Part shown: positions 832 through 45,764 of the stretch, in pieces
Position numbering within the stretch: the stretch's first letter is position 1
How the letters are laid out: each line of letters starts with the position of its first letter
Origin: Candidatus Fervidifonticultor sextus
GTDB lineage: Bacteria; Sysuimicrobiota; Sysuimicrobiia; Sysuimicrobiales; Humicultoraceae
Assembly (NCBI GenBank): GCA_031459875.1
Contig: JAVKHQ010000005.1
Span: 39,584 to 103,583 of the forward strand
Direction of reading: 5' to 3'
DNA length: 64,000 nt
Notes under the pieces: model-generated
Seen by the model: the letters and a program-made list of their open reading frames with translations, nothing else
What the model was told of the DNA's origin: nothing
The model's database searches: none
Position numbers and translations under genes: made by a program

Positions 832-879
832 GGCATGGCCTTCGCGGCCGCCGCGGGGCGGTCCTACCGCGCCGGGCGC

Positions 880-925
880 GAAGGATCTTTTCGGATGCCC
901 AGGAGAATTTCAGAAGGATTTTTTC
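880..925. promoter_or_regulatory. Two 13-nt direct repeats, GAAGGATCTTTTC at 880-892 and GAAGGATTTTTTC at 913-925, spaced 33 bp centre to centre, in an AT-richer divergent promoter region. Candidate operator.
   Basis: Seen directly in the sequence. It lies between the divergent starts at 831 (minus) and 949 (plus). Confidence 0.35.
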
Positions 926-948
926 ATCCCCTCCCGAAGGGAACCCCG

Positions 949-3871: not shown

Positions 3872-3940
3872 CGCCCTGCCCCCCCTACACCGTGCGGCCG
3901 GGGCCCAGGGAGCGCGGGACCCGGCTGCCGGACTTCGCCG

Positions 3941-7934: not shown

Positions 7935-7959
7935 GGCGGCCCAATCGCAAGGGGCGGGA

Positions 7960-14215: not shown

Positions 14216-15490
14216 GTGAGCGTTGACGTGCCGATCGCAGAACTGGAGGCCAAGACCCTGACAGAGCTCCAGGACATGGCCAAGGAGCTCAACATCCCCA
14301 ACTACCGGCGGTACCGGAAGCAGGAGCTGATCATGCGCGTGCTCCAGGTGCAGACCGAGGCCGCGGGGCTGCTGATCCGCTCGGGCATCCTGGAGATCAT
14401 GCCCGAAGGGTACGGGTTCCTGCGGACCAACGGCTACCTGCCGGGCAACGAGGACATCTACGTGTCGCCCTCGCAGATCAAGCGGTTCGGCCTGCGGGTG
14501 GGCGACGAGGTGCTGGGGCAGGTCCGGCCGCCCAAGGACAACGAGAAGTACTTCGCGCTGCTGCGCGTGGAGGCGGTCAACGGGCTGGACCCCGAGCAGG
14601 CGCGCACGCGTCCCGGTTTCGAGCAGTTGACGCCGGTCTTCCCCCACGAGCGCATCAAGCTGGAACTGCCCGAATCCGACCTCACCGTGCGGGTGGTCGA
14701 TCTGTTCTCGCCCATCGGCAAGGGCCAGCGCGGCATGATCGTCTCGCCGCCCAAGGCCGGCAAGACCACGCTGCTCAAGAAGATCGGGCAGTCCATCGTC
14801 CAGAACCACAGCGAGATCTATCTGATGGTCCTGCTCCTCGACGAGCGGCCGGAAGAGGTTACCGACATGCGCCGCTCGGTCGAGGCGGAGGTCATCGCCA
14901 GCACCTTCGACCGCGCCCCCGAGGAGCACATCCAGGTGGCCGACCTGGTCCTGGAGCGCGCCAAGCGTCTGGTCGAGGGCGGCCGGGACGTCGTCATCCT
15001 GCTGGACTCCCTGACGCGCTTCTCCCGCGCCAACAACCTGGTCATCCCGCCGTCGGGCCGCACGCTGTCCGGCGGCCTGGATCCCGCGGCCCTGCACCGG
15101 CCGAAGCGGTTCTTCGGCGCGGCCCGCAAGATCGAGGAGGGCGGGAGCCTGACCATCATCGCCACGGCCCTGATCGACACCGGCAGCCGGATGGACGACG
15201 TCATCTACGAAGAGTTCAAGGGCACTGGCAACATGGAACTGCACCTCAACCGCAAACTGCAGGAGCGCCGGACCTTCCCGGCCATCGACATCAAGATGTC
15301 GGGCACGCGGCGCGAGGAGCTGTTGCTCACCGACGAAGAACTGCGCAAGGTCTGGGTGCTGCGCAAGAGTCTGGAGCAGCTCGACACCGTGGCCATGACC
15401 GAGCTCATCCTGGACCGCCTGCGCAAGACCCCCAACAACGCGGCGTTCCTGCGGTCGATCGTCAAGAGCTCGGAGGAGAACGGCGCCTAA
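14216..15490 (+). CDS. rho: Transcription termination factor Rho.
   Basis: N-terminal Rho_N region ([14 protein letters not shown]), RNA-binding domain and ATPase Walker A motif [11 protein letters not shown]. Confidence 0.92.
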
Positions 15491-15520
15491 ACTCCCAGGC
15501 CTCCCCCATGGGGCGCACCT

Positions 15521-15553
15521 CGACGCCCGGCAGGAGGACGCGGCCGGGCGTCG
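15521..15553 (+). terminator. Perfect 11-bp GC-rich hairpin (CGACGCCCGGC / GCCGGGCGTCG, 11-nt loop) 30 nt after the rho stop. Candidate terminator or attenuator-like structure.
   Basis: Seen directly in the sequence; it has no U-tract. Confidence 0.35.
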
Positions 15554-15696
15554 AATACTAGTGGCACTCCGCAGCAGGCTGGTTCGTCTGGGTTTCCTCG
15601 CACGACCGCACGCCGCCCGCGCGTGCGCAACATGCCGGTCGAATATCCAGCCCGGCGCAGGCCGGTGCGTCTGGCTGGGACAGGTAGGAGGCAGCA

Positions 15697-16770
15697 TTGC
15701 GCACAGCGGCACGGCTGGCGTGCGTGGCGGTGGTCCTGGCGCTGGCGACGGCGCTGGGGGTGCCGGAGCCGGTGGCCTCCCAGCCTCCGGTGCGATCCAG
15801 GGCCGATCGGACAGTCGTCCAGCCGCTGCACGACCTCTCGGCGCTCCACCCGCCGGTGGCCCGCGACGGCCGGCTGGTGTCGGCTGGGGCGCGGCCCCGG
15901 GGCCCGGTCGCCGGCGCTCCCGGAATCGGGGTCCCGCGGGCCAGCGCCCTCCCGGCGCGTGTCACGCCGCCGCGGGTCCACACCGTGCGCAGCGGCGACA
16001 CCCTGTGGGGCATCGCCAGGCGGTACGGGGTCACAGTGGAACGCCTGGCCGAAGCAAACCGAATCCAGGCGACCTCGACGCTGGCGACGGGGCGGTCCCT
16101 GGTGATTCCGCCCCAGGGAGGCGGGCAGGCCCCCGCAGCCCGGGCGACCTCGCGGCCTGCGCCGCCGCGTCCCGCACCCGTCACCCATATCGTCCAGCCG
16201 GGCGACACGTTGTGGGACATCGCCAGCCGGTACGGGACGCGCGTGGAAGACCTGATGGCCTACAACGACCTGGGCGACTCCGAGTGGATCAGGCCCGGCC
16301 AGCGGTTGATCATCTCGGGCCGCGCGCTCCCCAGGCACCGCCAGGTGGCCGCGCAGTCTCGCAGCGCCCGCCGGGCGCCGGCGGGGGAGATCGAGGCGCT
16401 GGCCGGGGGCCTGGCCTGGCCCGCGCGCGGGACCCTCACCTCGCGGTTCGGCTGGCGGTACCGGCGCCACCACGACGGGATTGACATCGCCAGTCCCCGC
16501 GGGACGCCGATCTTTGCCGCGCGCGACGGCGTGGTGGAGTTCGCGGGGTGGAAGGCCGGGTACGGCCGCGTCGTCATCGTCAGCCACGGGGGCGGTCTGG
16601 TGACGGTCTACGGACACGCGTCGAGCCTGCTCGTTAAAGCCGGCGAGTCGGTCAGGAAGGGCCAGGTGATCGCGCGCGTCGGCTGCACCGGTTCCTGCAC
16701 CGGGTCGCACCTCCACTTCGAAGTCCGCCACAACGGCCGACCGATCAACCCGCTGCCCTACCTGCAGTAG
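15697..16770 (+). CDS. Peptidoglycan hydrolase with two LysM domains and a C-terminal M23 (LytM) peptidase domain.
   Basis: VHTVRSGDTLWGIARRYGV and HIVQPGDTLWDIASRYG are LysM motifs. The M23 region carries HHDGIDI and GSHLHFEV. TTG start 7 nt after an AGGAGG RBS. Confidence 0.85.
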   Translation: MRTAARLACVAVVLALATALGVPEPVASQPPVRSRADRTVVQPLHDLSALHPPVARDGRLVSAGARPRGPVAGAPGIGVPRASALPARVTPPRVHTVRSGDTLWGIARRYGVTVERLAEANRIQATSTLATGRSLVIPPQGGGQAPAARATSRPAPPRPAPVTHIVQPGDTLWDIASRYGTRVEDLMAYNDLGDSEWIRPGQRLIISGRALPRHRQVAAQSRSARRAPAGEIEALAGGLAWPARGTLTSRFGWRYRRHHDGIDIASPRGTPIFAARDGVVEFAGWKAGYGRVVIVSHGGGLVTVYGHASSLLVKAGESVRKGQVIARVGCTGSCTGSHLHFEVRHNGRPINPLPYLQ

Positions 16771-16821
16771 TCCATCGAAGCCCCGCCTGCCGTCGGGTGC
16801 CTCGACGGCCCAGGGGTGGTC

Positions 16822-17084: not shown

Positions 17085-17885
17085 CTACTGCCGATCCAGC
17101 CACGCGAAAAAGTCTTTCTCGAACTCTTCCACCGGGCGACCGAAGACGGCCTCAAACTGGGTCGGGAAGACCGTGTCACCCGGCGCATAGAGCGCGATGA
17201 TCTTGGGCCACCCGGCGGTCTCGTGCAGGTAGATGCCCAGGGCTGCCGCGATGCGATAGAAATCCCCCAACGTCCTCGCATCCGGCGTCCCGATTCCGAT
17301 CTGCCGGATGGAGAAGGCAGGCTGGTTCTTCCTGGCCTGCTGGGACCGGGGGAGTTGCGTGGCCTTCACGTACGCCGGAAAGTTAATGACCCTCCGTTCG
17401 TCCATGACCTTCAGCTTGTGTAGCTCGGCCGGCCCTTCCCAGAAAGCAAAGGGAGTTCTGCGGCGATCCATCCGCGACTGGCGCTGGTACAGGTGGAACA
17501 TCTCGTGCGGGACGGTCCACCAAACCTGCAGGTCGGGCCGCGCGGTATAACTGCGAATGTACTCGAGGTTCAACGCGAAGGCCCCCAGGGCCGACTGACC
17601 GCTGTAGAGGTGGGATCGCCGCTCCGCGGTCGGCCGGTCGAACAACCCGAACTCCACGAGGACGTCGGCGAAGTCGGCCTTTGTGGCGCAGAGGTAGGCC
17701 TTTGGGGGCCCATCCAGCACCACGCCGAGCCTCCTCAGAGACGCCAGGCTGTGCAGCGTCGCCTGCTGGACGGCCTGGACCACGGCGGGCTCCACCTGGC
17801 CGCGCTGCACGATCTCGAACGGCAGTTGGGCGAGGGTCGGGTGGAGTGCCAGGGTCGTGGCGATTGCGCACACCACCAGGCTCAA
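17085..17885 (-). CDS. Secreted hypothetical protein with an HEXXH motif (putative zinc metallopeptidase).
   Basis: Signal-peptide-like N-terminus. VPHEMFHLYQ carries the HEXXH motif. TTG start. Confidence 0.55.
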   Translation of the reverse strand: MSLVVCAIATTLALHPTLAQLPFEIVQRGQVEPAVVQAVQQATLHSLASLRRLGVVLDGPPKAYLCATKADFADVLVEFGLFDRPTAERRSHLYSGQSALGAFALNLEYIRSYTARPDLQVWWTVPHEMFHLYQRQSRMDRRRTPFAFWEGPAELHKLKVMDERRVINFPAYVKATQLPRSQQARKNQPAFSIRQIGIGTPDARTLGDFYRIAAALGIYLHETAGWPKIIALYAPGDTVFPTQFEAVFGRPVEEFEKDFFAWLDRQ

Positions 17886-20348: not shown

Positions 20349-20978
20349 TCAGGGCTTCTGGCTGATAGCCAGCCGCCCGTACCTCTCTGGAAGGAACACG
20401 CCCACGTTCCGCGGCCACCAGAAGCTGGGGCCACGGTCGTAGTTGTCCCAGTAGTGCAATCCGGTGGCCACCGTCCCGCCGAGTGCAACACCGATCTCCT
20501 CCAATGGGACCGACAGCTCGTACATCATGTGGCGCGCTGCGGGCGGGCCCATCGCCGCGCCCCGTGCGCGGCTGTCGAAGTGAAATGTCCGTCGGCCTCG
20601 CGCATCGATGCGGTCCGTGCGCAGCCGGCCGTCGCCATAGAGCCAGTAGCCGACCTCGCCCTTGAACCAGATGGCCATGTTGTCGAAGCCGGTGTGGGGA
20701 GGGCTGGACGCCGTGGTGTTGGTGATGTCGTGGATGGCGTCGACACCCACGTAAAGCCGCTCCGTATCGTTCATGACGAGGAAGACGCACCGCGCACCCC
20801 CATCGCGGCTGGCCAGGGTCAGGCGGGCCGCTGCCCGCCACTCGTCCTCTCCGACGACCCCGTCGATGTCAGGCGGCGTGACCGCGTAAGGACTCTGGAG
20901 CACCTCCTGCCCACCGGCTCCTCCCGCGAGGAGACCGGCGATCGCCAGAAGTGCGCCAGCGGCCCCGACCCGTCTCAT
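20349..20978 (-). CDS. Secreted hypothetical protein.
   Basis: Signal peptide MRRVGAAGALLAIAGLLAGGAGG; no recognised domain. Confidence 0.5.
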   Translation of the reverse strand: MRRVGAAGALLAIAGLLAGGAGGQEVLQSPYAVTPPDIDGVVGEDEWRAAARLTLASRDGGARCVFLVMNDTERLYVGVDAIHDITNTTASSPPHTGFDNMAIWFKGEVGYWLYGDGRLRTDRIDARGRRTFHFDSRARGAAMGPPAARHMMYELSVPLEEIGVALGGTVATGLHYWDNYDRGPSFWWPRNVGVFLPERYGRLAISQKP

Positions 20979-25445: not shown

Positions 25446-26303
25446 GTGAGGACCGTCGCCGAGGCCTGGATGGCCGGCCGCGAGCACCTGGCCGCATTGG
25501 GCGTGGAGGAGGCCGCGATCACCGCGGAAGTCCTGCTCCGGCACGCCCTGGGCTGGACCCGCACCGAACTCTATCTGGCCTGGCACCGCCCCCTCGACGA
25601 GGCGGCCTGGACGCGCTTCCAGGCCCTCCTGGACGCCCGGGCGGCAGGACGGCCGGTGGCATATATCGTCGGCCGGCGGGAGTTCATGGCACTGGACTTT
25701 CTGGTGGATGAACGGGTCCTCATCCCCAGGCCCGAAACCGAGGTGCTGGTGGAGGCGGCGCTGGAGGCGGTCCGCGACGTCCCGGCACCGGCCATCGCCG
25801 ACATCGGCACCGGCAGCGGCGCTATCGCCGTGAGCCTGGCGGTCCTGCGTCCGGACGCCGCCATCGTCGCCACGGACCTCTCCCAGGATGCCCTGGAGGT
25901 GGCCCGGACCAACGCCGACCGGCACGGCGTGGCCGACCGGATCCGCTTCCTCCAGGGCGACCTGTTAGCCCCGGTCGCCGCCGCCGGCATGCGCCTGGAC
26001 CTGGTGGCCTGCAACCCCCCCTACGTCTCCCCTGAGGCGGCGGGGGGGCTGCCCAGGGAGATCCGGGAGTTCGAGCCGGCCGTCGCGGTGGTGGCTCCCG
26101 GGGACCCCCTGGACCTCCACCGCCGGCTGGTCACCACGGCGCCCGGGGTCCTGCGGCCACGAGGCTGGCTGGTGGTGGAGGTCGGAGCAGGCCAGGCCCC
26201 GCGTGTGGTCGAACTGTTCAATCAGGCGGGCGCCTACGAGGCTCCAGTCACAAGACGGGATGGCCTCGGGTGGGATCGGGTCGTGGCCGCGCGCATCCGG
26301 TGA
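25446..26303 (+). CDS. prmC: Release-factor glutamine N5-methyltransferase.
   Basis: NPPY motif (VACNPPYV) and DIGTGSGAI SAM-binding motif. Confidence 0.88.
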   Translation: MRTVAEAWMAGREHLAALGVEEAAITAEVLLRHALGWTRTELYLAWHRPLDEAAWTRFQALLDARAAGRPVAYIVGRREFMALDFLVDERVLIPRPETEVLVEAALEAVRDVPAPAIADIGTGSGAIAVSLAVLRPDAAIVATDLSQDALEVARTNADRHGVADRIRFLQGDLLAPVAAAGMRLDLVACNPPYVSPEAAGGLPREIREFEPAVAVVAPGDPLDLHRRLVTTAPGVLRPRGWLVVEVGAGQAPRVVELFNQAGAYEAPVTRRDGLGWDRVVAARIR

Positions 26304-26306
26304 GCC

Positions 26307-26804
26307 ATGAATGAGAAAGGCCGACCGGCGAACTACTACGCGCTCACCTTCCAGCCGGCGGTGGATCGATCTCAGGAGCCCATCGTGATCCTCCGAGTGG
26401 ATCCGCGCGATGATGCCGTGCCGCGCAGGGCGGTGGAGGTGCTCCGCGCAGGCGGGCTGATCGTCTTTCCCGCCGACGACGGCTACCTGGTCGGGTGCTC
26501 GGCGCTGGATCCTGAAGCGGTCCAACGGCTGTGCGAGGTCACCGGTGTCAGGCGCGAGGCCCTCACCTATTTCGCCGGCTCGCCGGAGCACGCCGCCCGC
26601 CTGGACGCGCCGACCCGCCCGCTCCACCATCCCGTACCGCTGGCGCTGATGCGCGCCACCGGAGTGCCGCTGGCGGCGACGCCCTGCCGGCCCGATGGGC
26701 CACCGGCGCCGTCGGCCCAGCACGCCGTCTTCATCCTGGGGGACGCCGCGGATCTGGTTTTGGACGCCGGACCGATCCGGCAGCCGGCTCCCGCAGGCAG
26801 GTAA
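26307..26804 (+). CDS. Protein with a YrdC/Sua5 domain only (L-threonylcarbamoyladenylate synthase family, short form).
   Basis: LIVFPADDGYLVGCSALDPEAVQRL; only 165 aa, with no Sua5 C-terminal domain. Confidence 0.65.
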   Translation: MNEKGRPANYYALTFQPAVDRSQEPIVILRVDPRDDAVPRRAVEVLRAGGLIVFPADDGYLVGCSALDPEAVQRLCEVTGVRREALTYFAGSPEHAARLDAPTRPLHHPVPLALMRATGVPLAATPCRPDGPPAPSAQHAVFILGDAADLVLDAGPIRQPAPAGR

Positions 26805-26808
26805 GACC

Positions 26809-27264
26809 GTGCGCATCGTGATCGGAGGTGACCACGCGGGGGTGCTCCTCAAGGCGGAGATCGCGCGCCTGCTGCTGGAACTGGGTCACGAGGTGCGAGA
26901 TCTGGGTACCAACACCGTGCAGCCGGTGGACTACCCCGACTACTGCATCCCGGTGGCCGAGGCGGTCGCGCGCGGGGAGGCCGATCGGGGCATCATCTTC
27001 GGCGGGACGGGCAACGGCGAGGCCATGGCGGCCAACAAGGTGATGGGGATTCGATGCGCCGTCTGCCACGATGTCACCACGGCGCGCCTGGCGCGATCCC
27101 ACAACGACGCCAACATGCTCGCGCTGGGCGCCCGGATCGTGGGGACCGAGGTCGCCAAGGAGATCGTCCGGACGTTCCTGGCAACCCCGTTTGAAGGGGG
27201 ACGGCACATCCCGAGGATCGAGAAGATTCACAGGTACGAGCGGGAGCGCAGGCTCCCGCCGTAG
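26809..27264 (+). CDS. rpiB: Ribose-5-phosphate isomerase B.
   Basis: (M)RIVIGGDHAG...GGTGNGEAMAANK...CHD. GTG start at 26809. Confidence 0.88.
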   Translation: MRIVIGGDHAGVLLKAEIARLLLELGHEVRDLGTNTVQPVDYPDYCIPVAEAVARGEADRGIIFGGTGNGEAMAANKVMGIRCAVCHDVTTARLARSHNDANMLALGARIVGTEVAKEIVRTFLATPFEGGRHIPRIEKIHRYERERRLPP

Positions 27265-29955: not shown

Positions 29956-30759
29956 ATGTCGGTCTGGGTCGGGACCTCCGGATACGCCTACGCGCACTGG
30001 CGGGGAGTCCTCTATCCTGCAGACCTTCCGCCACGGCGCTGGCTGGCGCACTACGCGGCCGCGTTCGAGGCGGTCGAGTTGAACGTCACGTTCTACCGCC
30101 TGCCCCGGGCGTCCGCCTTCGAGGCCTGGCGCCAGGGGACGCCGGCCGGATTCCGGTTCGCGGTGAAGGGGAGCCGGTTCATCACCCACCTGAAGCGGCT
30201 GGGAGACGCAGGAGAGGCACTCGCGACGTTCTTCGAGCCGGTCCGACGGCTGGGGCCGAAGCTGGCAGCCGTACTCTGGCAGCTGCCCCCGCGGTTCCGG
30301 GCGGACCCCGACCGGCTCGACCGGTTCCTGAGCCAGGCCGCCCGGGCCGCCGGACGCGTCCGCCGCGCCGGGCCGGTCCGGCACGCGCTGGAGTTCCGCG
30401 ACCGGTCGTGGTTCAATGAGGCTGTCTATGAGGTGCTCCGGCGCCACGATGCCGCGCTCGTGCTGGCCGACGCTCCATTCGAGGTGGTCACCGCGCCGCT
30501 GCGGGCGGCCCCCGGGGGGCGGCTCGACACTGTCAGGGTCCCGGTGGTGAGTTCGTGGATGTACCTGCGCCGCCACGGGTCGCGGGGGGACGGCCGCCTT
30601 TCCTACACGGAGGCAGAACTGCGCCGCGATGCCGAGGCCATCGCCGCCTGGGCGCGTCGAGGTGACGTCTTCGTCTTCTTCAACAACGACTATGCCGGGC
30701 ACGCGGTCCGCAATGCCGCCACGCTCCAGCGGCTCGTCGGTGCCCTGATGGCGGGATGA
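29956..30759 (+). CDS. DUF72 (UPF0759/YecE-like) family protein.
   Basis: VGTSGYAYAHWRGVLYP...FYRLP. Confidence 0.75.
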   Translation: MSVWVGTSGYAYAHWRGVLYPADLPPRRWLAHYAAAFEAVELNVTFYRLPRASAFEAWRQGTPAGFRFAVKGSRFITHLKRLGDAGEALATFFEPVRRLGPKLAAVLWQLPPRFRADPDRLDRFLSQAARAAGRVRRAGPVRHALEFRDRSWFNEAVYEVLRRHDAALVLADAPFEVVTAPLRAAPGGRLDTVRVPVVSSWMYLRRHGSRGDGRLSYTEAELRRDAEAIAAWARRGDVFVFFNNDYAGHAVRNAATLQRLVGALMAG

Positions 30760-32525
30760 ATGTTCCGCAGGCCGCCGTGGCCCTGATCTGCGTGGCGCTG
30801 GCGGTCGCCCTGGGGAGCCTTCCCACCGGCGCCGTCGTCGGCCGGCGCCTGCGCGGGGTGGACCTGCGGCGCCTCTCGCCCCACAACCTCGGACTGGGCA
30901 CCGTGGCCGCCCTGGTCGGCGTCCCGGTCCTCGGGCTGGTGGTGGTCCTGGACCTCCTCAAGGGGATGCTGGCCGTCACGGTCGCCTGGGCGCTGGCGCC
31001 GTCGGCATGGACCCTGGCCGCCGCCTCCGCCGGCGCCATGGCGGGCCACGCGTGGGGGCCGTTTCGGTTCCTGGCGCCACCGGTGGCGGCGCGGCTCAAG
31101 GGCGTCGCCGTGGCCTCCGGCACCGTAGTGATGCTGGCCTGGCTGGGGCAGGTCCCGTGGACCTCGGTGGCGATCCCGGCGGCCGTCGGCGGCGGCACGC
31201 TGGCGGCCCCCCGGGCGTTTGGCCCGCGGTGGGGCTACCTGTCGCTGGCGGCCGTGCTGGCTGCCGCCAGCCTGCCGGTGGCGCTCTGGGCGCTGCGCGC
31301 GCCGGTGCCCTACCTCGTCCTCGCGCTGGCCTACGCGGTCCTGACCCTCTGGAACCACAAAGAGCACCTGCTGCGCATCGCCGACGGCGTCGAGCCCCGC
31401 CTGGGCGAGCGCCTGCCGCTGCCGGGCCTGGACAGCGAGGCGGTCTGCGCGTTCCTCATCCACCCCATGACCGTGCGGGACTTCTGGGAAGCCCGACGGT
31501 TCCGGTGGCTCGGGCCGCTGTACCGGCGCGGCCTGATCCCCGACCGGGTCGTGCGCCAGCTGGCGCGCCTTGCCCGCCCGATGAAGGTCGACGACTGGCA
31601 CCCCATCATCACCGCCGACGGCCGTCGCGCCCGCGTCTACCTGATCGGCGCGCCGCTGCTGCCCGACATGATCCGCTCGGACCCGGCGCTGGCGGTCCGC
31701 CGGGCGGTCCAGGCCGCGCACCTGGCATCGAACCTGGGCGCGACCGTGCTGGGCCTGGGCGCCTTCTGGTCGGTCGTCGGCCACAAGGGCACCGATGTGC
31801 AGGCTCAGGCTCCGATCGCCATCACCAACGGCGGCGCCTATACCGCCGGGACTGTCAGGATGGCCATCCCGCTGGTCCTGGACCGGCTGCGCGGGCGGGG
31901 CGTCGAGGTCTCTCGCGCGGTCGCCGCGGTCGTGGGGGCCAACGGGGTCGTCGGCTTCGGCATCTGCCGGGCCGTGGCAGACCGCGTGGGCCGCCTCATC
32001 ATGATCGGGACGGATCAGGAGCGGCTGGAGCGGTCGAGGGAACTGTTGCTGCGCCGGTATCCCAAAACCACGATCGAGGCCACGACGGATCTCGTGCGGC
32101 TGCGCCAGGCCGACGTCATTTTCACGGCCACCTCCGATCCGCGGCCAGTCATCTTTGCCGACCACGTCCGGCCCGGGTGCCTGCTCTTCGACCTGGGCCG
32201 GCCTCCTGATGTGGACGAGTCGGTGCGGACCGTCCCCGGTGTCGAGGTCATCCCCGGAGGGGTCGTCCGGCTGCCCGGGGATCCTCGGGGACGCATCGAG
32301 GATCTGGGCTACGGCCCCGGGCTGGTGCCCGCCTGCCTGGCCGAGACCATCATCATCGCCCTGGACGGCTGCTTCGACCGCAGGAGCCTGGGCGACCGCA
32401 CGCGCAGCGAGGACGTGGACTTCTTTGTCAGTCGCGCCAGCGACCTGGGGTTTCAGGTGCTGACCGCGCTTCCTCCGGCGGTCCGTCCAGGAGTCCCGTC
32501 CCCAGGAGTGGAACCCCATCCCTGA
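30756..32525 (+). CDS. Fusion protein: N-terminal PlsY-family (acyl-phosphate:G3P acyltransferase-like) membrane domain joined to a C-terminal acyl-ACP-reductase (AAR)-like NAD(P)-binding domain.
   Basis: N-terminal region carries HNLGLGT, LDLLKG and GHAWGPF...KGVAVASG, cf. PlsY GSGNLGATN / LDILKG / H..F..KGGKAVAT. C-terminal region carries LGLGAFWSVV, TNGGAYTAG, AVVGANGVVGFGICRAV and LIMIGTDQERLERSRELL, cf. cyanobacterial AAR. Single uninterrupted 589-aa ORF. Confidence 0.6.
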   Translation: MNVPQAAVALICVALAVALGSLPTGAVVGRRLRGVDLRRLSPHNLGLGTVAALVGVPVLGLVVVLDLLKGMLAVTVAWALAPSAWTLAAASAGAMAGHAWGPFRFLAPPVAARLKGVAVASGTVVMLAWLGQVPWTSVAIPAAVGGGTLAAPRAFGPRWGYLSLAAVLAAASLPVALWALRAPVPYLVLALAYAVLTLWNHKEHLLRIADGVEPRLGERLPLPGLDSEAVCAFLIHPMTVRDFWEARRFRWLGPLYRRGLIPDRVVRQLARLARPMKVDDWHPIITADGRRARVYLIGAPLLPDMIRSDPALAVRRAVQAAHLASNLGATVLGLGAFWSVVGHKGTDVQAQAPIAITNGGAYTAGTVRMAIPLVLDRLRGRGVEVSRAVAAVVGANGVVGFGICRAVADRVGRLIMIGTDQERLERSRELLLRRYPKTTIEATTDLVRLRQADVIFTATSDPRPVIFADHVRPGCLLFDLGRPPDVDESVRTVPGVEVIPGGVVRLPGDPRGRIEDLGYGPGLVPACLAETIIIALDGCFDRRSLGDRTRSEDVDFFVSRASDLGFQVLTALPPAVRPGVPSPGVEPHP

Positions 32526-32547
32526 GGCACTACCCCAGGAGAGGCCC

Positions 32548-33384
32548 ATGCGCGTGGGACTGGCGCAGTACGGATCGTCGGCCGACAAGGCCGCCAACCT
32601 GATCCAGGCAGCAGAAGTGGCCCGGGAGGCCGGCCGCCGGGGCGTGGACCTGCTCGTCTTCCACGAGGTCTACATGTACCGCCGGCCCCCGGAGGCGACG
32701 GTGCCGCCTGCGGAGGTCGCCGAGCCCCTGGACGGGCCGTTCATGCAGGGCGTGCGGCGCGCGGCGGCGGAGCACCGGCTCCACCTAGTCATGGGCCTGT
32801 TGGAACGGGCGCCGGGCGAATCCTACCGGGCGTACAACACCGCCGTCCTGGTCGCGCCTTCAGGCCAGGTGCTGGCCGTCTACCGCAAGGTGCACCTCTA
32901 CGACGCCTTCGACGGCAGGGAGTCCGAATCGTTCGTGCCCGGCGACGCACCGCCGCCGGTCGCCGACACCCCGCTGGGCCGCATCGGATTGCAGATCTGT
33001 TACGATATCCGGTTCCCCGAGTGGTCGCGGCTGCTCGCGCTGCAGGGCGCCGAGTACCTGGTGGTGCCGACGCGGTGGGTACCCGGCCCGCTGAAGGAGG
33101 AGCACTGGCTCACGCTGGTGCGGGCCCGCGCCATCGAGAACACCTGCTGGGTGATCGCCGCTGCCGACGTCCCGCCGTATCGCCTGGGCCGGTCGGTGGT
33201 CGTGGATCCCATGGGGGTGGTGGTCGCCGACGGCGGGGAGGAGGCGGGGCTGGTGACGGTGGATGTGGATCCCGATCGGGTGCGGCGCGTCCGCGCGAAG
33301 AACCCGTCGCTGCTCTTCCGCCGCCCCGACCTCTATGGGGCGCTGGCGGAGAAGGGCGTGGCGGCGGCGAACCGTAGGGAGTAG
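32548..33384 (+). CDS. Carbon-nitrogen hydrolase family protein (nitrilase/amidase superfamily).
   Basis: MRVGLAQY...E (catalytic Glu region), ...K, and ICYDIRFPE (catalytic Cys). Confidence 0.8.
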   Translation: MRVGLAQYGSSADKAANLIQAAEVAREAGRRGVDLLVFHEVYMYRRPPEATVPPAEVAEPLDGPFMQGVRRAAAEHRLHLVMGLLERAPGESYRAYNTAVLVAPSGQVLAVYRKVHLYDAFDGRESESFVPGDAPPPVADTPLGRIGLQICYDIRFPEWSRLLALQGAEYLVVPTRWVPGPLKEEHWLTLVRARAIENTCWVIAAADVPPYRLGRSVVVDPMGVVVADGGEEAGLVTVDVDPDRVRRVRAKNPSLLFRRPDLYGALAEKGVAAANRRE

Positions 33385-35405: not shown

Positions 35406-36539
35406 ATTTCCACCATCACGCGCGAGACCGCGTTCGGCGGCCTCGCCCTGCGCCCGGAAACCGTCCGGGCCCTCTTTCGTCTGGGGTGGACCGAACCCAC
35501 TCCGATTCAGGGGAAGGTCATCCCCAGGCTCCTGGCCGGAGCCGACGTGGCCGGCCAGGCCCAGACCGGGTCCGGCAAGACTGGAGCGTTTGCGATTCCC
35601 CTGGTCGAGCGCCTCGACCGGGCGGCCCGGAGGATCCAGGCCCTGGTCCTGGCGCCGACCCGCGAACTGGCCCTGCAGATCGCCGGCGTCGTGCGCGACC
35701 TGGGCGGCCCCGCCGCGCGCGTGGCGACCCTCTACGGCGGCCAGCCCATCGAGCGCCAGTGCAGCGCCCTGCGCGGCGGCACACAGGTGGCGGTGGCCAC
35801 GCCCGGCCGGCTGCTCGACCACCTCAACCGGCGCACGATCCGACTCGACGCCGTCGCGTTCCTGGTCCTGGACGAGGCCGACCGGATGCTGGAGGCGGGC
35901 TTCCTGCCCGACGTCGAGGCGATCCTCCGTCACGTGCCGCGCGAGCGGCAGACGGCGCTGTTCTCAGCCACGCTGCCTCCGGCGGTCAGCGAGATCGCGA
36001 CCCGGCACATGCGGAATCCGGTCTGGATCCGGATTGCCGCGCCGACGCCGACCGTCCAGACCGTCACCCAGTATTACCTGGAGGTCGCCGAGCAGGACAA
36101 GGTCCGGGCGCTGCGGCTGCTGCTGACCAGCGGCGAGGTCCCCTCCGCCCTGGTGTTCCGGCGCACGCGGCGGGGCACCGACCGGCTGGCCAAGGTCCTC
36201 CGCGACCGCGGGATCCCCGTCGAGGTGCTCCACGGCGACATGACGCAGGGCGCACGGCTGCGGGCGCTGGAGGCGTTCGCCCGGGGGAAGGTCCGGGTGC
36301 TCATCGCCACCAACGTGGCCGCCCGGGGGCTCGACCTGCCCGATATCTCCCACGTCATCAACTTCGACATGCCTGAGGATGTTGAGACCTACATCCACCG
36401 GGTCGGCCGGACGGCCCGCATGGGTCGGGACGGGGAGGCGATCACCTTCGTGGGACAGTACGATGTGGAGACCTTCGACCTGATCCAGCGCCGGCTCGGG
36501 GGGGCGCTCCGACCGCACCCGCTGCCGCTGTACCGGTAG
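35406..36539 (+). CDS. DEAD-box ATP-dependent RNA helicase. No canonical start codon; the putative ATT start at 35406 lies 8 nt after an AGGAGG RBS.
   Basis: Q-motif (FGGLALRPETVRALFRLGWTEPTPIQ), motif I (AQTGSGKT), DEAD-box (VLDEADRM), SAT and HRVGRTAR. Between the in-frame TAG at 35391 and the first GTG at 35547 there is no ATG, GTG or TTG, yet the Q-motif is encoded in that stretch. Confidence 0.6.
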   Translation: MSTITRETAFGGLALRPETVRALFRLGWTEPTPIQGKVIPRLLAGADVAGQAQTGSGKTGAFAIPLVERLDRAARRIQALVLAPTRELALQIAGVVRDLGGPAARVATLYGGQPIERQCSALRGGTQVAVATPGRLLDHLNRRTIRLDAVAFLVLDEADRMLEAGFLPDVEAILRHVPRERQTALFSATLPPAVSEIATRHMRNPVWIRIAAPTPTVQTVTQYYLEVAEQDKVRALRLLLTSGEVPSALVFRRTRRGTDRLAKVLRDRGIPVEVLHGDMTQGARLRALEAFARGKVRVLIATNVAARGLDLPDISHVINFDMPEDVETYIHRVGRTARMGRDGEAITFVGQYDVETFDLIQRRLGGALRPHPLPLYR

Positions 36540-36555
36540 GCTCTGGGGGTCGATC

Positions 36556-36599
36556 GGGAAGGGGCGGTGCACCGTCCCTTCTCTTCTGTGCTTCTTTGG
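36556..36599. terminator. Bidirectional intrinsic terminator: 28-nt imperfect hairpin (GGGAAGGGGCGG-TGCA-CCGTCCCTTCTC) followed by a T-rich tract, TTCTGTGCTTCTTTGG.
   Basis: Seen directly in the sequence between the convergent helicase and pit genes. Confidence 0.6.
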
Positions 36600-36610
36600 C
36601 CTTTGACCCG

Positions 36611-37609
36611 TTAGAAGATCCGGCGCAGGAGAAACGCCACCAGCCCGCCGATCAGCGCGCAGGCCGGGAACGTGAGGATCCAGGCCGCCACGATCTCGAG
36701 CCCGACGCCCCACCGCACCGCTGAGAACCGGCGTGTGGCGCCGACCCCCATGATCGCCGTATTGATGGTGTGAGTGGTGCTCACCGGGATGCCCAACCGG
36801 GTGGCCGTCTCGATGGCTGAAGCCGCGGCGGTCTCGGCGGCGAAGCCCTGGTAGGGCTCCAGTTTCGTCACCCGCATGCCCATGGTGTGGACGATCCGCC
36901 ACCCGCCCAGCGCGGTGCCGACCCCCATGGTGGCCGCGCAGGTCAGGATGACCCACAGGGGGACCCGGAACTCCGGCAGGACCCCGCCCAGCACGAGGGT
37001 CAGGGTGAAGACGCCGATGAACTTCTGGCCGTCGTTGCTCCCGTGGCTGAAGGCCATGAACGCGGCCGAGCAGATCTGCAGGCGGCCGAAGAGCCGGCGG
37101 GCCGCACCCAGTGATGTGCGCCTGAATGTCCACGAGATGGCCAGGAGCAGCAGGAACCCCCCTGCAAACCCCAGCACGCTGGAGAACCCCAGCCCGACCA
37201 GGACCTTCTGCCAGCCCTCCCACAGCAGCACGTCGGGACCGGCGGTGGCCAGCCCGGCCCCCGACAGGGCGGCGACGAGGGCGTGGCTCTCGCTGGTAGG
37301 CAGCCCGTGGAGCCACGCCAGGGTGCTCCACACCACGATGGCCAGCATCGCCGCCGCGATCGTGACCGGGTCGACGACCTCGGCCCGCACGATGCCCTTG
37401 CCGATGGTCGCCGCGACCGCGGTCCCCGACATCGCCCCGAGCGCGTTCAACACCGTCGCCATCCCCACCGCCACCGACGGCGTGAGCACCCGCGTCGAGA
37501 CCACGGTCGCGATCGCGTTGGGCGCATCCGTCCAGCCGTTGACGAACTCGGCCGCCAGGACCAGCAGGAGCACGGGGACCAGGCCGGCGGGGAAGACGGT
37601 CTCGCTCAC
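36611..37609 (-). CDS. pit: Inorganic phosphate transporter, PiT family.
   Basis: GWTDAPNAIATVVSTRVL and the C-terminal repeat GIPVSTTHTINTAIMGVG. GTG start overlaps the DUF47 stop as GTGA. Confidence 0.85.
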   Translation of the reverse strand: MSETVFPAGLVPVLLLVLAAEFVNGWTDAPNAIATVVSTRVLTPSVAVGMATVLNALGAMSGTAVAATIGKGIVRAEVVDPVTIAAAMLAIVVWSTLAWLHGLPTSESHALVAALSGAGLATAGPDVLLWEGWQKVLVGLGFSSVLGFAGGFLLLLAISWTFRRTSLGAARRLFGRLQICSAAFMAFSHGSNDGQKFIGVFTLTLVLGGVLPEFRVPLWVILTCAATMGVGTALGGWRIVHTMGMRVTKLEPYQGFAAETAAASAIETATRLGIPVSTTHTINTAIMGVGATRRFSAVRWGVGLEIVAAWILTFPACALIGGLVAFLLRRIF

Positions 37610-44266: not shown

Positions 44267-44332
44267 GACGACACCCCCGTTCGTCAGGTGATCGTGCGGT
44301 CTGACAGCGTGCACTCGGACCTCTTGCATGGC

Positions 44333-45004
44333 TCATCTCGCCGCCTGGACGAACGTCCTCCATGTGCGCGCCGCGCCTGCGGCGGAGGCCGGCGCGTGGT
44401 CGGGACAGTCGATCCGCAGGGCGCGGTCGCCGAAGGCGGCGTCCACGAACGCACAGTGATGCGGGCGGGCGGGATCGGCGTGCACGTGCGGCCGAAAGTA
44501 CCGGCAGGTGACGCACATCCGGCTCGGGGCGATCTGCCCAGACTCCTGGAGGGCGCGGATCACCTTCACCAGGGCGCGCAGCAGGGCGGCCTGCTCGGTT
44601 ACCCCGAGCGTGTCGACCGCAGCGTGCACGGCTTCGCCCCAGCTCAACGCCCGACCCGCTTCGCGACGACCCGCGGGTGTGAGGACAATGAGCCGGCCAC
44701 GGCCGTCGCCACCGACGGCGTGCTTGGCGACAAGCCCTTTCCGCGCCAGGGTGGTGACCGCCTGGCTCGCGCTCGCCCTGGTGACGCCCAGCGCGGCCGC
44801 GACGGCGGAGAGGCGCTGGCCACCGGGATGGCGGCGCAACATGGTGAGGATCAGCCCCTGCGTCGGCGTGAGGCCGCGTGGCCCGGCGCCACGCCACGAC
44901 GCCTGCCGCAGCGCCAGAGCGATCCTGCTCAGGCCGGCGGTGACGCGTTGCCGCAGGGGCTCGCCGTCGACCTCAACCCGGGTGAACGCCGACCTGGAGA
45001 CCAT
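44333..45004 (-). CDS. MarR-family winged-helix regulator with a Cys/His-rich C-terminal tail; possible metal (copper) sensor.
   Basis: LTPTQGLILTMLRRH...LSAVAAALGVTRASASQAVTTLARKGLV is a MarR wHTH. The tail reads MCVTCRYFRPHVH...HHCAF...RIDCPDH. Confidence 0.65.
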   Translation of the reverse strand: MVSRSAFTRVEVDGEPLRQRVTAGLSRIALALRQASWRGAGPRGLTPTQGLILTMLRRHPGGQRLSAVAAALGVTRASASQAVTTLARKGLVAKHAVGGDGRGRLIVLTPAGRREAGRALSWGEAVHAAVDTLGVTEQAALLRALVKVIRALQESGQIAPSRMCVTCRYFRPHVHADPARPHHCAFVDAAFGDRALRIDCPDHAPASAAGAARTWRTFVQAAR

Positions 45005-45254
45005 GTTGGTTAAGTCTCCTAACGACTCGTTGCCTCCCGGGTTCGACACAGAGGTCGAGGTTCCTGCACGCCTCCGACGGACCGCGGAGGCACGCCAACC
45101 TTCGGGCCAGTGGACGCCCGCCAAGAGGGGGCCGCCACGGGCGCCGGCACCGGGGAGCATGATGTCGCTCTCCGGGACAGGGCCGTGGGTGATCCCGCGG
45201 GCGCGATTCCTCGGTTGGTCGGCGGGTGCGGGCCCGGCGCCGTCCGGCCGAAGG

Positions 45255-45764
45255 TCAGGGCGCCGCCATTCGCACCGGCACCCGGACCGCCACCGCCCCG
45301 GCCTGCTCGAAGTGCAGCGTCGCTGTGAACCGATCCCCCTCCCGAAGGTCGCGCTTGAGGCCAAGCAGCATGATGTGGAGGCCGCTTGGCCGCAGCGTCA
45401 CCCGGCCGCCCGCGGGCACCACAATAGCCGGCAGCTTGTGCATGCGACTCATGCCGCCCTCCATGCGCGTCTCGTGGAGCTCCACGGCGGCGGCAACGTC
45501 GGTCTCGGCACGCACCAGACGATCACCCCTCGGTCCGGTGTTGTGGATGGTCATGTAGATCGCCGACGTGCCGGGGCCCATGGCCATGGTGGTCCCGTGG
45601 GCACCGGCGGGAGCCGCGATGCCTGGCCGCGCCTAGGCGTCCTCGATGCGGATAGGCGAGGCCGGCGGCGCCGCTTCGCTGGCAGCGATGGCGGCCATGA
45701 ACACCACTGCGGTGAAGAGGGCCGTGCCTCGCAGCCACGAGATTCTCAAGCACATCAAGTCCAT
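45255..45764 (-). pseudogene. PCu(A)C copper chaperone paralog interrupted by an in-frame TAG at 45633-45635, where the intact copy has TGG.
   Basis: The single reading frame 45764-45255 encodes MDLMCLRISWLRGTALFTAVVFMAAIAASEAAPPASPIRIEDA*ARPGIAAPAGAHGTTMAMGPGTSAIYM...HETRMEGGMSRMHKL. It aligns residue-for-residue with the intact copy (...IRIEKAWARPG...). Confidence 0.6.

Follow-up and report, generated by a model that had tools for sequence, protein, structure and literature searches.

What reaction is served by a protein that joins a PlsY-like membrane domain and an acyl-ACP-reductase (AAR)-like domain in one chain? The question is raised by a gene in a 64,000-nucleotide stretch of DNA from Candidatus Fervidifonticultor sextus (the window). 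A first-pass annotation described the gene as a single-ORF fusion, knew of no characterized example of this architecture, and suggested fatty aldehyde, fatty alcohol or ether-lipid-type chemistry for it. A full-text literature search found no paper that characterizes the PlsY-AAR fusion, however, the architecture is not rare and is already named in databases, where NCBI and JGI label the family 'glycerol-3-phosphate acyltransferase'.

Gene structure and reality of the fusion

The fusion gene is located at 30756..32525 on the + strand, as are all features described below, and is given in the ORF list as one uninterrupted ORF of 589 aa plus stop with an ATG start. The start codon shares bases with the stop codon (TGA) of the DUF72 gene that lies upstream (ATGA, 30756-30759). 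Third-position GC (GC3) ranges from 0.84 to 0.98 in a single frame across the entire ORF, junction included. The opposite strand features a 635-aa ORF (30690..32597), which in our reading is the usual by-product of high GC content. The PlsY motifs quoted in the first-pass annotation are all present, SPHNLGLGT at aa 41-49, LDLLKG at 65-70, GHAWGPF at 97-103, and KGVAVASG at 115-122, and the AAR-like motifs are found at aa 332-341 (LGLGAFWSVV), 357-365 (TNGGAYTAG), 391-407 (AVVGANGVVGFGICRAV), and 414-431 (LIMIGTDQERLERSRELL).

The AlphaFold model of the 589-aa protein has a mean pLDDT of 93.2 and a pTM of 0.91, and predicts that both domains form one rigid unit, making the modelled gene product a rigid two-domain membrane enzyme. 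The junction, PRLGERLPLPGLDSE (aa 214-228, 31395..31439), is short, is conserved in the family alignments, and is modelled with pLDDT of at least 87. The C-terminal tail (aa 576-589, 32481..32522) is non-conserved in the alignment, and residues 578-589 are predicted to be disordered (pLDDT below 50).

The same fused architecture was found at 260 genome loci and in 761 proteins retrieved with a Thermus query. More than 100 full-length homologues with 48-74% identity are among the matches listed. Full-length homologues, which number in the hundreds, occur in Armatimonadota, in some Bacillota (Thermaerobacter and Bacillota MAGs), and in every sampled genus of Deinococcota. The carriers include Deinococcus (many species, all sampled genomes), Thermus, Meiothermus, and Oceanithermus, with T. 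thermophilus and M. ruber among them, and every Deinococcus or Thermus genome examined carries the fusion.

These data bear on the possibility that an error in sequencing or assembly joined two neighbouring genes into one. Such errors can occur, as a related MAG locus (L036) has the gene split across two frames, however, nothing in support of an error was found for the fusion gene itself. The same single ORF is present in complete isolate genomes, including T. thermophilus, T. oshimai JL-2, M. ruber, and Deinococcus altitudinis, the junction is conserved, and GC3 is continuous through it. An artefact of this kind has practically no chance of being correct and is already refuted by the comparative data. 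The single-ORF claim thus stands on the ORF, the GC3 profile, the full-length homologues, and the fold evidence, and, judged from sequence, the gene very probably encodes a fusion that is real and conserved and whose reductase has a competent active site.

The PlsY-like membrane domain

A Pfam/HMMER domain scan supports both domain assignments. The N-terminal part (aa 1-220, 30756..31415) is assigned as a PlsY-derived seven-helix membrane domain by PF02660, TIGR00023, Foldseek, and the AlphaFold helix pattern. PF02660 (G3P_acyltransf) matches aa 18-208 with 73.9 bits against a gathering score of 24.1, and the PDB sequence match to PlsY 5xj5 has an E-value of 1e-11. Foldseek aligns the domain to PlsY structures 5xj5-5xj8 with TM(target) values of 0.78-0.84 at 27-30% identity. 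The PlsY equivalog model TIGR00023 gives 74.5 bits, which is about half of its cutoff of 137.2. The orthologues from T. thermophilus and Deinococcus score 65.5 and 61.7 with the same model, and the fusions of a rarer sister clade score 143-147.

The active site was compared with that of Aquifex aeolicus PlsY (aaPlsY), for which residue roles have been assigned (PMC5700162). Motif 1, SPHNLGLGTVAA (aa 41-52, 30876..30911), is altered in the alignment to 5xj5 and features P42 in place of S35, H43 in place of G36, G48 in place of T41, and A52 in place of R45, while N44, which corresponds to N37, is kept. The GHAWGPF motif and a remodelled Loop 3 follow at 31044..31121. H98 corresponds to the invariant H92 of aaPlsY, and K115-G116-V117-A118 match the 'phosphate hole' segment K104-A107. 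Loop 3 contains a five-residue insertion common to all PlsY-AAR fusions and has R113 at the position of G102, a residue that is Gly in 97.9% of canonical PlsY proteins (PMC5700162 Table 2) and Arg in all members of the fusion family except the canonical sister clade. The motif 3 variant, WNHKEHLLRIADGVEPRLGE (aa 199-218, 31350..31409), retains H201, R207, and E213 as the equivalents of H177, R183, and E189, and has H204 in place of N180.

The change of GSGN to SPHN pointed out in the first-pass annotation is confirmed, but the site is more altered than this change alone suggests. The glycerol-3-phosphate (G3P) phosphate clamp S35/R45/K104/N180 becomes P42/A52/K115/H204, a loss of three of its four residues, and the ligand of the 2-OH group, H177, is kept as H201. 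The acyl-phosphate site retains H98, N44, and K115-G-V-A118 but has G48 for T41, R113 for G102, and the insertion in Loop 3. In aaPlsY, H92 is a ligand of the acyl-phosphate phosphate, T41 binds the acyl-phosphate carbonyl, and N37 stabilizes the oxyanion (PMC5700162). Mutagenesis of aaPlsY left 4.8% activity for S35A, 4.8% for T41A, 1.1% for R45A, 0.95% for N180H, and 0.03% for H177Y (PMC5700162). The P42, G48, A52, and H204 states are fixed throughout the window clade. The Deinococcota have lost a different subset, with S35 replaced by Ala, T41 by Glu, and H177 by Phe or Tyr. Family-wide, N37, H92, and E189 are invariant, R183 is nearly so, and the K104 position is Lys or Arg.

Given these replacements, the window-clade domain is, with good confidence, something other than a canonical G3P acyltransferase, and the database name is probably wrong for this clade. 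The retained N37, H92, K104 (as Lys or Arg), and E189 may indicate that an acyl-phosphate-dependent reaction persists. In the sister clade the same reductase is joined to a PlsY site that is canonical throughout, and its proteins are probably functional PlsY enzymes; it follows that a working acyltransferase was the original partner in the fusion.

The reductase domain

The C-terminal part was initially described as an NAD(P) domain similar to AAR. The AAR assignment is supported by HMM and Foldseek results, however, the region is more than an NAD(P) domain. Homology begins at about aa 229, where CAFLIHPMT matches the AAR N-terminus FGLIGHLTS, so that about 347 aa make up a full AAR-like protein. 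This domain (aa 229-575, 31440..32480) is assigned to the AAR/PigE-N type of thioester reductase by PDB matches, NCBIfam, and Foldseek, and is predicted to be cytoplasmic. Among NCBIfam models it is matched best by the PigE N-terminal region (NF053554, positions 45-330), with 86 bits over aa 276-563, and the T. thermophilus orthologue reaches 107 bits with this model. The AAR model TIGR04058 gives 56.7 bits against an equivalog cutoff of 449.7, and PF01488 covers aa 388-499. PDB sequence searches match AAR 6jzq with E 3e-13 (phmmer) and PigE 4ppm with E 1e-12. Foldseek matches to AAR 6jzu and 6jzy have E-values of 9e-19 and 1e-17, with TM(target) values of 0.79-0.81 over about 356 aligned columns.

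The catalytic elements of AAR are recognizable. The dinucleotide-binding loop G394-A-N-G397-V-V-G400 (31935..31955) aligns with G162ATGDIG168 of AAR (PMC7089970); of its glycines, G397 never varies, and conservation of G394 and G400 is 90% or higher. The catalytic-cysteine motif P-A-C527-L-A-E530 (32328..32345) was located by AAR and PigE alignments, and C527, which is invariant in 123 sequences and all complete loci, aligns with C294 of AAR, the residue that carries the acyl-thioester intermediate (PMC7089970). The Arg triad that binds the NADPH 2'-phosphate and the CoA 3'-phosphate in AAR (R189/R193/R314; PMC7089970) aligns with T419/R423/D547, of which only R423 is conserved. A fatty aldehyde is favoured as the product, though by no means firmly. 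Between clades, identity is 51-58% in the reductase domain versus 29-38% in the PlsY-like part.

The domain conservation bears on whether the database annotation is right, with the protein as the cell's PlsY and the C-terminal domain as an NAD(P)-binding module that has a regulatory or accessory function. The NCBI and JGI name, the PF02660 score above the gathering score, and the probably functional PlsY of the sister clade are consistent with this assignment. Additionally, the gene lies among housekeeping genes, which differ by clade, and no second PlsY was found in the window or in the retrieved flanks, which cover a small fraction of each genome. However, of the two domains it is the supposed accessory one that is better conserved and contains a catalytic Cys, the TIGR00023 score falls well short of the equivalog cutoff, and the replacements in the window clade (S35/T41/R45/N180) and in Deinococcota (S35/T41/H177) affect residues whose single mutants retain 0.03-5% activity in aaPlsY. 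The annotation is thus quite improbable.

Proposed role in alkylamine lipid synthesis

The best reading of the sequence is a membrane-docked, fatty-aldehyde-forming reductase whose likeliest role would be alkylamine supply for N-glyceroyl-alkylamine phosphoglycolipids, and we give this reading about an even chance. The reductase domain would be a Cys-dependent, NAD(P)H-dependent member of the AAR/PigE-N family. Its substrate would be a long-chain acyl group in activated form, in all likelihood acyl-ACP, which would be loaded on Cys527 as a thioester and then reduced to the fatty aldehyde. The membrane domain, which appears to descend from the acyl-phosphate:G3P acyltransferase PlsY and presumably no longer acts as a G3P acyltransferase, would anchor the reductase and receive or hand over lipid at the membrane, and it may have a new transferase activity. 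A separate transaminase would turn the aldehyde into the long-chain alkylamine of the phosphoglycolipid.

The link to these lipids is suggested by the phyletic distribution and by the fusion partners of the domain family. PigE reduces a thioester to an aldehyde and then transaminates the aldehyde to an amine (PMC8341465), and many relatives of the AAR-like domain are fused to class-III aminotransferases, some also with ACP or adenylation domains. By analogy, the domain family appears to carry out acyl-to-aldehyde-to-amine chemistry. The structure of an N-glyceroyl-alkylamine phosphoglycolipid was solved in four species, and the lipid class is described as an unambiguous marker of the Deinococcus-Thermus lineage (PMC3035268). 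The same lipids were recently reported in some Bacillota (Bale 2025), and Moorella thermoacetica is an alkylamine lipid maker. Carriers of the fusion include proven producers of the lipid and many Deinococcus species; D. radiodurans and M. thermoacetica lie outside this comparison. No conserved neighbour of the gene is an aminotransferase, a glycosyltransferase, or another lipid-pathway gene in the neighbourhoods compared across clades. That the aldehyde feeds alkylamine lipids is, as a separate claim, tentative and has a clearly less than even chance.

The aldehyde could instead be converted into ether/plasmalogen-type lipids, wax esters, free fatty alcohols, or the long-chain 1,2-diol lipids of Thermus and Meiothermus. 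The active site of the reductase, competent by its residues, would serve these products as well, and a combination of reductase and acyltransferase is known in myxobacterial ether-lipid synthesis (ElbD). However, no ether-lipid genes (AGPS, PlsA/PlsR, Ger) were found near any locus examined, and the G3P site needed for a G3P-linked ether is degraded. The ether-lipid idea of the first-pass annotation gained no specific support; the phyletic pattern and fusion partners point tentatively to fatty-amine lipids. In Meiothermus and Thermus, long-chain diols are reported to replace 1-acyl-glycerol (PMC3035268). However, the partners to which the domain family is fused indicate amines rather than alcohols. 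Diols are, to our knowledge, unreported in Deinococcus, all of whose sampled genomes carry the fusion. Taken together, such fates are unlikely.

The aldehyde-for-amine model does not itself explain why the fusion originated on a working acyltransferase. This origin is addressed by a different proposal, in which both domains cooperate around acyl-phosphate rather than a freely released aldehyde. In one version (a) the reductase-like domain is PlsX-like, with transfer of acyl-ACP to the Cys and phosphorolysis to acyl-phosphate, which is fed to the PlsY-like site. In a second (b) it is a phosphorylating fatty-aldehyde dehydrogenase that feeds acyl-phosphate to the same site. In a third (c) the PlsY-like domain takes up acyl-phosphate from the membrane and passes it to the reductase, which would be an acyl-phosphate reductase analogous to aspartate-semialdehyde dehydrogenase (ASADH). 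GAPDH and ASADH are established examples of chemistry that converts a thioester on an active-site Cys into an acyl-phosphate. The canonical PlsY of the sister clade argues that the ancestral fusion coupled a reductase-like domain and a working acyl-phosphate enzyme, the acyl-phosphate-side residues (H92, N37, K104 as Lys or Arg, and the phosphate-hole segment) are kept while the G3P-side residues decay, and the rigid inter-domain packing predicted by the model (pTM 0.91) would fit substrate hand-over. However, the window clade and Deinococcota no longer have a G3P site, so that versions (a) and (b) are left without an acceptor reaction to feed, and the carbonyl ligand T41 is also lost (Gly or Glu). 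The conserved dinucleotide loop would not be needed by a PlsX-like transacylase. Additionally, aaPlsY holds the head group of acyl-phosphate at a deep position within the membrane (PMC5700162) and AAR has its Cys in the middle of the soluble domain (PMC7089970), which makes direct attack sterically implausible. Cooperation around acyl-phosphate is thus a doubtful alternative to the aldehyde-forming reductase.

The enzymes for the third chain of the N-glyceroyl-alkylamine lipids were unidentified as of 2022 (PMC9636437). Since every examined Deinococcus and Thermus genome carries the fusion, it is a testable candidate for the fatty-amine lipids of this group: an uncharacterized, widely conserved enzyme that may help to make unusual lipids.

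Comparison with known systems

PlsY (PF02660, TIGR00023; A. aeolicus PDB 5XJ5-5XJ9) and the fusion share a homologous seven-helix membrane fold. The fusion keeps N37, G39, the LDxxKG motif, H92, K104, the phosphate-hole segment, R183, and E189, and differs by P/G/A/H at S35/T41/R45/N180, by His at G36, by Arg at G102, and by the Loop 3 insertion. Additionally, it features a 360-aa C-terminal enzyme domain, which all characterized PlsY proteins lack.

Cyanobacterial AAR (TIGR04058; PDB 6JZQ/6JZU/6JZY) has the same three-part fold as the fusion domain over its full length, with the catalytic Cys (C294 = C527), the Glu that follows, and the GxxGxxG loop aligned and conserved, and by analogy the fusion domain probably uses an AAR-like ping-pong mechanism via an acyl-Cys thioester. 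The two share 20-23% identity, and two of the three 2'-phosphate-binding arginines are not conserved. Unlike AAR, the fusion is found in non-cyanobacterial taxa and has no aldehyde-deformylating oxygenase (ADO) partner in evidence, with no ADO-like gene among the annotated genes of the window. The tunnel exit and N-terminal region of AAR contact ADO, whereas in the fusion that region directly follows the membrane domain.

The terminal amidation domain (TAD) of the carmabin and vatiamide NRPS pathways (PDB 9E4S and related) also features an AAR-like fold and an invariant Cys beside bound NAD, but differs in its macrodomain-like N-terminal half, its position as the last part of NRPS modules, and its putative role in amide formation (bioRxiv 10.1101/2024.10.28.620694). 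Foldseek matches to TAD have E-values of about 1e-13, 16% identity, and TM(target) values of 0.58-0.67.

PigE of the prodigiosin MAP pathway (NF053554; PDB 4PPM) features an AAR-like N-terminal reductase region and shares its Cys motif (C-M-A-E-T) with the fusion. The 86 bits of the whole fusion protein compare with a PigE cutoff of 850, and no Aminotran_3 match was found in the protein or among the annotated window genes. PigE combines its reductase region with a class-III aminotransferase domain, whereas the fusion has a membrane PlsY-like partner instead, and PigE acts on a 3-acetyloctanoyl thioester, whereas the presumed substrate of the fusion is a long-chain fatty acyl group.

Structure of the Fusion Gene and Its Product

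The fusion gene is located at window positions 30756..32525 on the + strand and consists of a single ORF that encodes 589 amino acids. The first-pass annotation had interpreted this ORF as a PlsY-like membrane domain fused to a domain like cyanobacterial acyl-ACP reductase (AAR). This structural interpretation is right: the motif strings that it quoted are all found where it placed them, and HMM, fold, and homologue evidence agree. A Pfam/HMMER domain scan supports both domain assignments, with a PF02660 (PlsY) match at aa 18-208 that scores 73.9 bits against a gathering score of 24.1 and a Shikimate_DH-type Rossmann segment at aa 388-499. The NCBIfam matches are the PigE N-terminal region with 86 bits (aa 276-563), PlsY with 74.5 bits, and AAR with 56.7 bits, and the PDB sequence matches are AAR 6jzq (E 3e-13, aa 275-548), PigE 4ppm (E 1e-12), and Aquifex PlsY 5xj5 (E 1e-11). 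The AAR-like part starts at about aa 229, where CAFLIHPMT corresponds to the AAR N-terminus FGLIGHLTS, and therefore a complete AAR-like protein is joined to a complete PlsY by a junction of about 15 residues. The AlphaFold2 model, built with a 123-sequence alignment, has a mean pLDDT of 93.2 and a pTM of 0.91 over all 589 aa, so the two domains are predicted to adopt one fixed arrangement. Foldseek matched the AAR fold with TM 0.79-0.81 and the PlsY fold with TM 0.78-0.84.

Third-position GC (GC3) is 0.84-0.98 across the junction and a single frame is kept throughout, which speaks for read-through and against a merge of two genes. A sequencing artefact was rejected as the origin of the fusion, because homologues carry both domains and GC3 is continuous; the fusion is real. 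Its ATG overlaps the stop codon of the upstream DUF72 gene (ATGA), and a CN hydrolase gene preceded by a strong ribosome-binding site lies 22 nt downstream.

Distribution of the Fusion

A search of 5.8 billion proteins with the fusion returned 348 matches, and more than 100 of the matches listed are full-length with both Pfam domains and 48-74% identity. These homologues come mostly from Armatimonadota MAGs, with some from Bacillota MAGs, and an identical NCBI entry carries the name "glycerol-3-phosphate acyltransferase". The same architecture turned up in 260 relatives when one genome was scanned for each GTDB species. The nearest relative is from Candidatus Fervidifonticultor octavus, a hot-spring member of the Armatimonadota (95% identity). 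At 46-49% identity the architecture occurs in many cultured Deinococcus species, Thermus scotoductus, Meiothermus, and Oceanithermus, as well as in a Thermaerobacter marianensis MAG and MAGs labelled Actinomycetota, and the fusion was found in every Deinococcota genus sampled. The Thermus fusion protein used as the query returned 761 relatives. Cluster look-ups placed 553-aa orthologues in several complete T. thermophilus genomes and also in T. oshimai, T. brockianus, T. filiformis, M. ruber, and M. taiwanensis. A full-text literature search found no paper on the architecture, a search by locus tag for the fusion gene gave nothing relevant, and Omelchenko 2005 does not mention the gene.

In one protein cluster at 90% identity, P0295, 553-aa Thermus fusions stand together with 220-225-aa futalosine hydrolases (MqnB), which the gene next to the Thermus fusion encodes. 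This mixture may result from read-through or an overlapping gene call, and cluster-level names and counts are to be read with care. Additionally, on one MAG contig (L036:6485-8848) the PlsY profile hits within the fusion gene fall in two different frames, probably owing to a frameshift, which would reflect either an assembly error or a pseudogene.

The PlsY-like Domain

Published structure-function data on Aquifex aeolicus PlsY (aaPlsY) (PMC5700162) were mapped onto the alignment of the window fusion. Of the residues that clamp the phosphate of glycerol-3-phosphate (G3P), S35 is replaced by P42, R45 by A52, and N180 by H204, and K104 is kept as K115; the acyl-phosphate carbonyl ligand T41 is replaced by G48. 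In aaPlsY, the S35A and T41A mutants each have 4.8% activity, R45A has 1.1%, and N180H has 0.95% (PMC5700162). The replacements are fixed across the window clade (P42 in 16/19, G48 in 15/19, A52 in 16/19, and H204 in 21/21) and are a conserved derived state rather than pseudogene decay. The Deinococcus, Thermus, and Meiothermus proteins have lost a different subset, with A in place of S35, E in place of T41, and F or Y in place of H177, and H177Y retains 0.03% activity in aaPlsY (PMC5700162). An intermediate group from some Armatimonadota and from MAGs labelled Actinomycetota departs from the canonical site only by G36H and G102R. The sister clade (P0159/P0268 and others), which is rarer and found in metagenome assemblies only, has a fully canonical PlsY site; a search with P0159 and cluster look-ups returned metagenome proteins only and gave no link to Moorella.

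The PlsY equivalog scores, with a cutoff of 137.2, fall along the same gradient as the site changes: 143-147 in the sister clade, 136.3 in the intermediate group, 74.5 for the window fusion, 65.5 for T. thermophilus, and 61.7 for Deinococcus. N37, G39, the LDxxKG motif, H92, and E189 are kept family-wide, and R183 is nearly so. G102, a position that is 97.9% Gly in canonical PlsY (PMC5700162), is Arg in fusions outside the sister clade. All fusions, the sister clade included, share an insertion of 5 residues in Loop 3, which points to a single origin. Between clades, identity is 29-38% in the PlsY-like part and 51-58% in the reductase part. Our reading is that the fusion arose on a working PlsY and that the G3P pocket then lost constraint, with the acyl-phosphate-side features and the reductase staying under selection. 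An HMM search of the six-frame ORFs of the window and the loci, which represent a small part of each genome, found no second PlsY.

The database name "glycerol-3-phosphate acyltransferase" is probably wrong for the window clade and the Deinococcota. Hundreds of entries with this name lack the G3P-binding residues and probably carry the wrong name, with consequences for metabolic reconstructions. The family also shows clearly how the active site of a membrane enzyme decays differently by lineage after fusion.

The Reductase Domain

C527 of the fusion is aligned with AAR C294, which carries the acyl-thioester intermediate (PMC7089970), and GANGVVG (aa 394-400) lines up with GATGDIG, the dinucleotide loop of AAR. 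Across 123 sequences C527 and G397 never vary, and conservation of G394 and G400 is 90% or higher. AAR uses R189, R193, and R314 to hold the 2'-phosphate of NADPH and also the 3'-phosphate of CoA (PMC7089970); in the alignment R193 is conserved as R423, R189 is replaced by T419, and R314 is replaced by D547. Judged by its sequence, the domain looks catalytically competent. The segment at aa ~243-257, directly after the membrane domain, is the equivalent of the AAR tunnel exit and ADO contact and features family-invariant Trp, Arg, and Phe residues. We infer that the acyl tunnel opens at its distal end towards the PlsY-like domain or the membrane. The idea that Cys527 directly attacks an acyl-phosphate bound to the PlsY-like domain was rejected, since the sites are too distant according to published structures. 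The fusion protein is made from two known kinds of protein and fails some of the defining features that were tested for both PlsY and AAR.

Gene Neighbourhoods and the Rest of the Window

ORFs were called and clustered in 80 genome loci and Pfam was run on the recurrent clusters; the Pfam-annotated contexts covered Bacillota, sister-clade, and intermediate-clade members. In these loci and contexts no partner is conserved across clades and no aminotransferase was found. The neighbourhoods are housekeeping and differ by clade. Members of the window clade have glyA, upp, and DUF72 upstream and CN_hydrolase, glnA, dCMP deaminase, and a DEAD helicase downstream, the Thermaceae have mqnB and a cyclase downstream, and one Bacillota MAG has fabF nearby. 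The CN_hydrolase and DUF72 neighbours were rejected as functional partners, as neither is conserved in sister loci. Nor did the surroundings of the nearest non-fused relatives hint at a pathway.

The only recurrent downstream neighbour is a PLD-like lipoprotein in ~10 Deinococcus loci (L043, L045, L054, L055, L057, L058, and others), where ispH is also downstream. At L055:9761-11305 it is a 515-aa protein (PF13091, two HKD-type motifs) whose gene comes next after the fusion, on the same strand, and precedes ispH; its N-terminus has a lipoprotein-like signal by eye. The protein, which is without conservation outside Deinococcus, could act in the same lipid pathway as a phosphatidyl-transferase. 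In members of the intermediate clade, the gene immediately behind the fusion, on the same strand, encodes a protein of 711-750 aa without a Pfam match and with a signal-peptide-like N-terminus by eye (L023:9857-11989, and the same place in L028 and L029).

The window's ~55 genes include no class-III aminotransferase, plsX, or plsC, and one fabF lies 24 kb from the fusion. No tRNA and no Rfam family at the gathering score was found in the whole window. The co-directional genes at 697-10090 look like a peptidoglycan (anhydro-MurNAc) recycling locus; they encode an RpiR/SIS regulator, a family-5 solute-binding protein, two ABC permeases, a beta-lactamase-family protein, a BadF/BcrA-type ATPase (possibly a sugar kinase), an SIS-domain protein (possibly MurQ-like), and the anhydro-N-acetylmuramic acid kinase AnmK. 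One ORF at 50295-51998 joins CopD, a copper-resistance membrane domain, to a cytochrome c domain at the C-terminus and is followed by a PD40 beta-propeller protein. Three ORFs on the - strand (17085-17885, 20349-20978, and 25965-26852) have GC3 of 0.81-0.86, a good coding signature, and no Pfam match at E <= 1e-5. The GC3-based gene call placed no ORF in three stretches of ~1 kb each (15490-16816, 36539-37606, and 44329-45255).

Proposed Role in Alkylamine Lipid Synthesis

The formation of a fatty amine requires that a fatty acyl group is reduced to the aldehyde and then aminated. 2'-O-(diacylglycerophospho)-3'-O-glycosyl-N-glyceroyl alkylamines make up the major phospholipid of Thermus and Meiothermus and the related major lipids of D. 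radiodurans, and these phosphoglycolipids have been called unambiguous chemical markers of the Deinococcus-Thermus lineage (PMC3035268). Within the phylum they are the predominant phospholipids and a chemotaxonomic hallmark. The enzymes that make the third hydrophobic (fatty-amine) chain were described as not identified in PMC9636437, and a literature search found no later assignment of these enzymes and no genes of alkylamine-lipid synthesis. As cited in PMC13274423, Bale et al. 2025 reported the lipid class in several Bacillota, and the citing paper names Moorella thermoacetica as a producer. The fusion is found in 4/4 species with a solved lipid structure and across Deinococcus, and also in Thermaerobacter and other Bacillota MAGs.

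In the most likely mechanism, the fusion would be docked at the membrane and form a fatty aldehyde there by way of an acyl thioester on Cys527. Physiologically, it most likely supplies the alkylamine chain for N-glyceroyl-alkylamine phosphoglycolipids. This proposal is correlative and is made because of the phyletic match and the aldehyde-to-amine association of the domain family; the gene neighbourhoods lend it no backing. A different reading, in which the two domains cooperate around an acyl-phosphate, is kept alive by the canonical PlsY of the sister clade, which implies an ancestral functional coupling to acyl-phosphate chemistry that the aldehyde-for-amine model does not explain.

It is quite improbable, although the conserved acyl-phosphate-side residues and the unconserved G3P clamp form a basis for the idea, that the PlsY-derived domain goes beyond anchoring and is a re-purposed acyl-phosphate-dependent transferase that makes a lipid amide bond. 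Such an enzyme would move a (phospho)glyceroyl group from an acyl-phosphate donor, e.g., 1,3-bisphosphoglycerate, onto a fatty amine. The product would be N-alkyl-3-phosphoglyceramide, a "retro" version of the PlsY product with the same chain-to-phosphate backbone atom count as lysophosphatidic acid. The family-wide Arg at the G102 position and the His/Tyr at the G36 position would be new substrate ligands, and the leaving phosphate would be handled by N37, H92, and the phosphate hole, all of which are retained. One polypeptide would then carry out the first (acyl to aldehyde) and last (amine to N-glyceroyl amide) steps of third-chain synthesis.

Under the preferred proposal of alkylamine-chain supply, the fusion is a concrete candidate for this step that can be tested genetically in T. 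thermophilus and D. radiodurans. Should the link be borne out, alkylamine lipids are predicted for some Armatimonadota of hot springs, among them the source of the window, and the gene would serve as a metagenome marker for them.

The Wider Reductase Family and Comparison with Known Systems

An exhaustive HMMER search identified 2,254 representative relatives of the reductase domain. The domain occurs as a stand-alone protein of ~350 aa, in PlsY fusions, and in class-III aminotransferase fusions, some of which include ACP or adenylation domains; other fusion partners are a PilZ-START module and a ~300-aa N-terminal domain without a Pfam match. PigE, the best-scoring curated family for the reductase domain of the fusion, reduces a thioester and then transaminates the aldehyde (PMC8341465). 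Taken together with the aminotransferase fusions, this chemistry points to the conversion of an activated acyl group to an aldehyde and then to an amine as a recurring job of the AAR-like domain.

The ~300-aa domain is recurrent before the AAR-like domain in the proteins P0138, P0139, and P0146 (~700-730 aa) and at the locus L088:170-2272, and in one context such a gene adjoins two phasin/PHB-granule genes. The 781-aa protein P0172 features a PilZ domain (c-di-GMP receptor) and a START/polyketide-cyclase lipid-binding domain fused to the reductase, which suggests a c-di-GMP-controlled lipid reductase. A class-III aminotransferase is N-terminal to the AAR-like domain in P0186, P0215, and P0216 (837-897 aa), in P0181 (1396 aa), which adds an adenylation domain, and in P0263 (1080 aa), which adds an ACP domain. 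These proteins look like self-contained acid-to-amine modules, and their domain order is presumably the reverse of that in PigE. A more distant structural relative of the fusion's reductase domain is the "terminal amidation domain" of carmabin, for which the amidation chemistry is putative.
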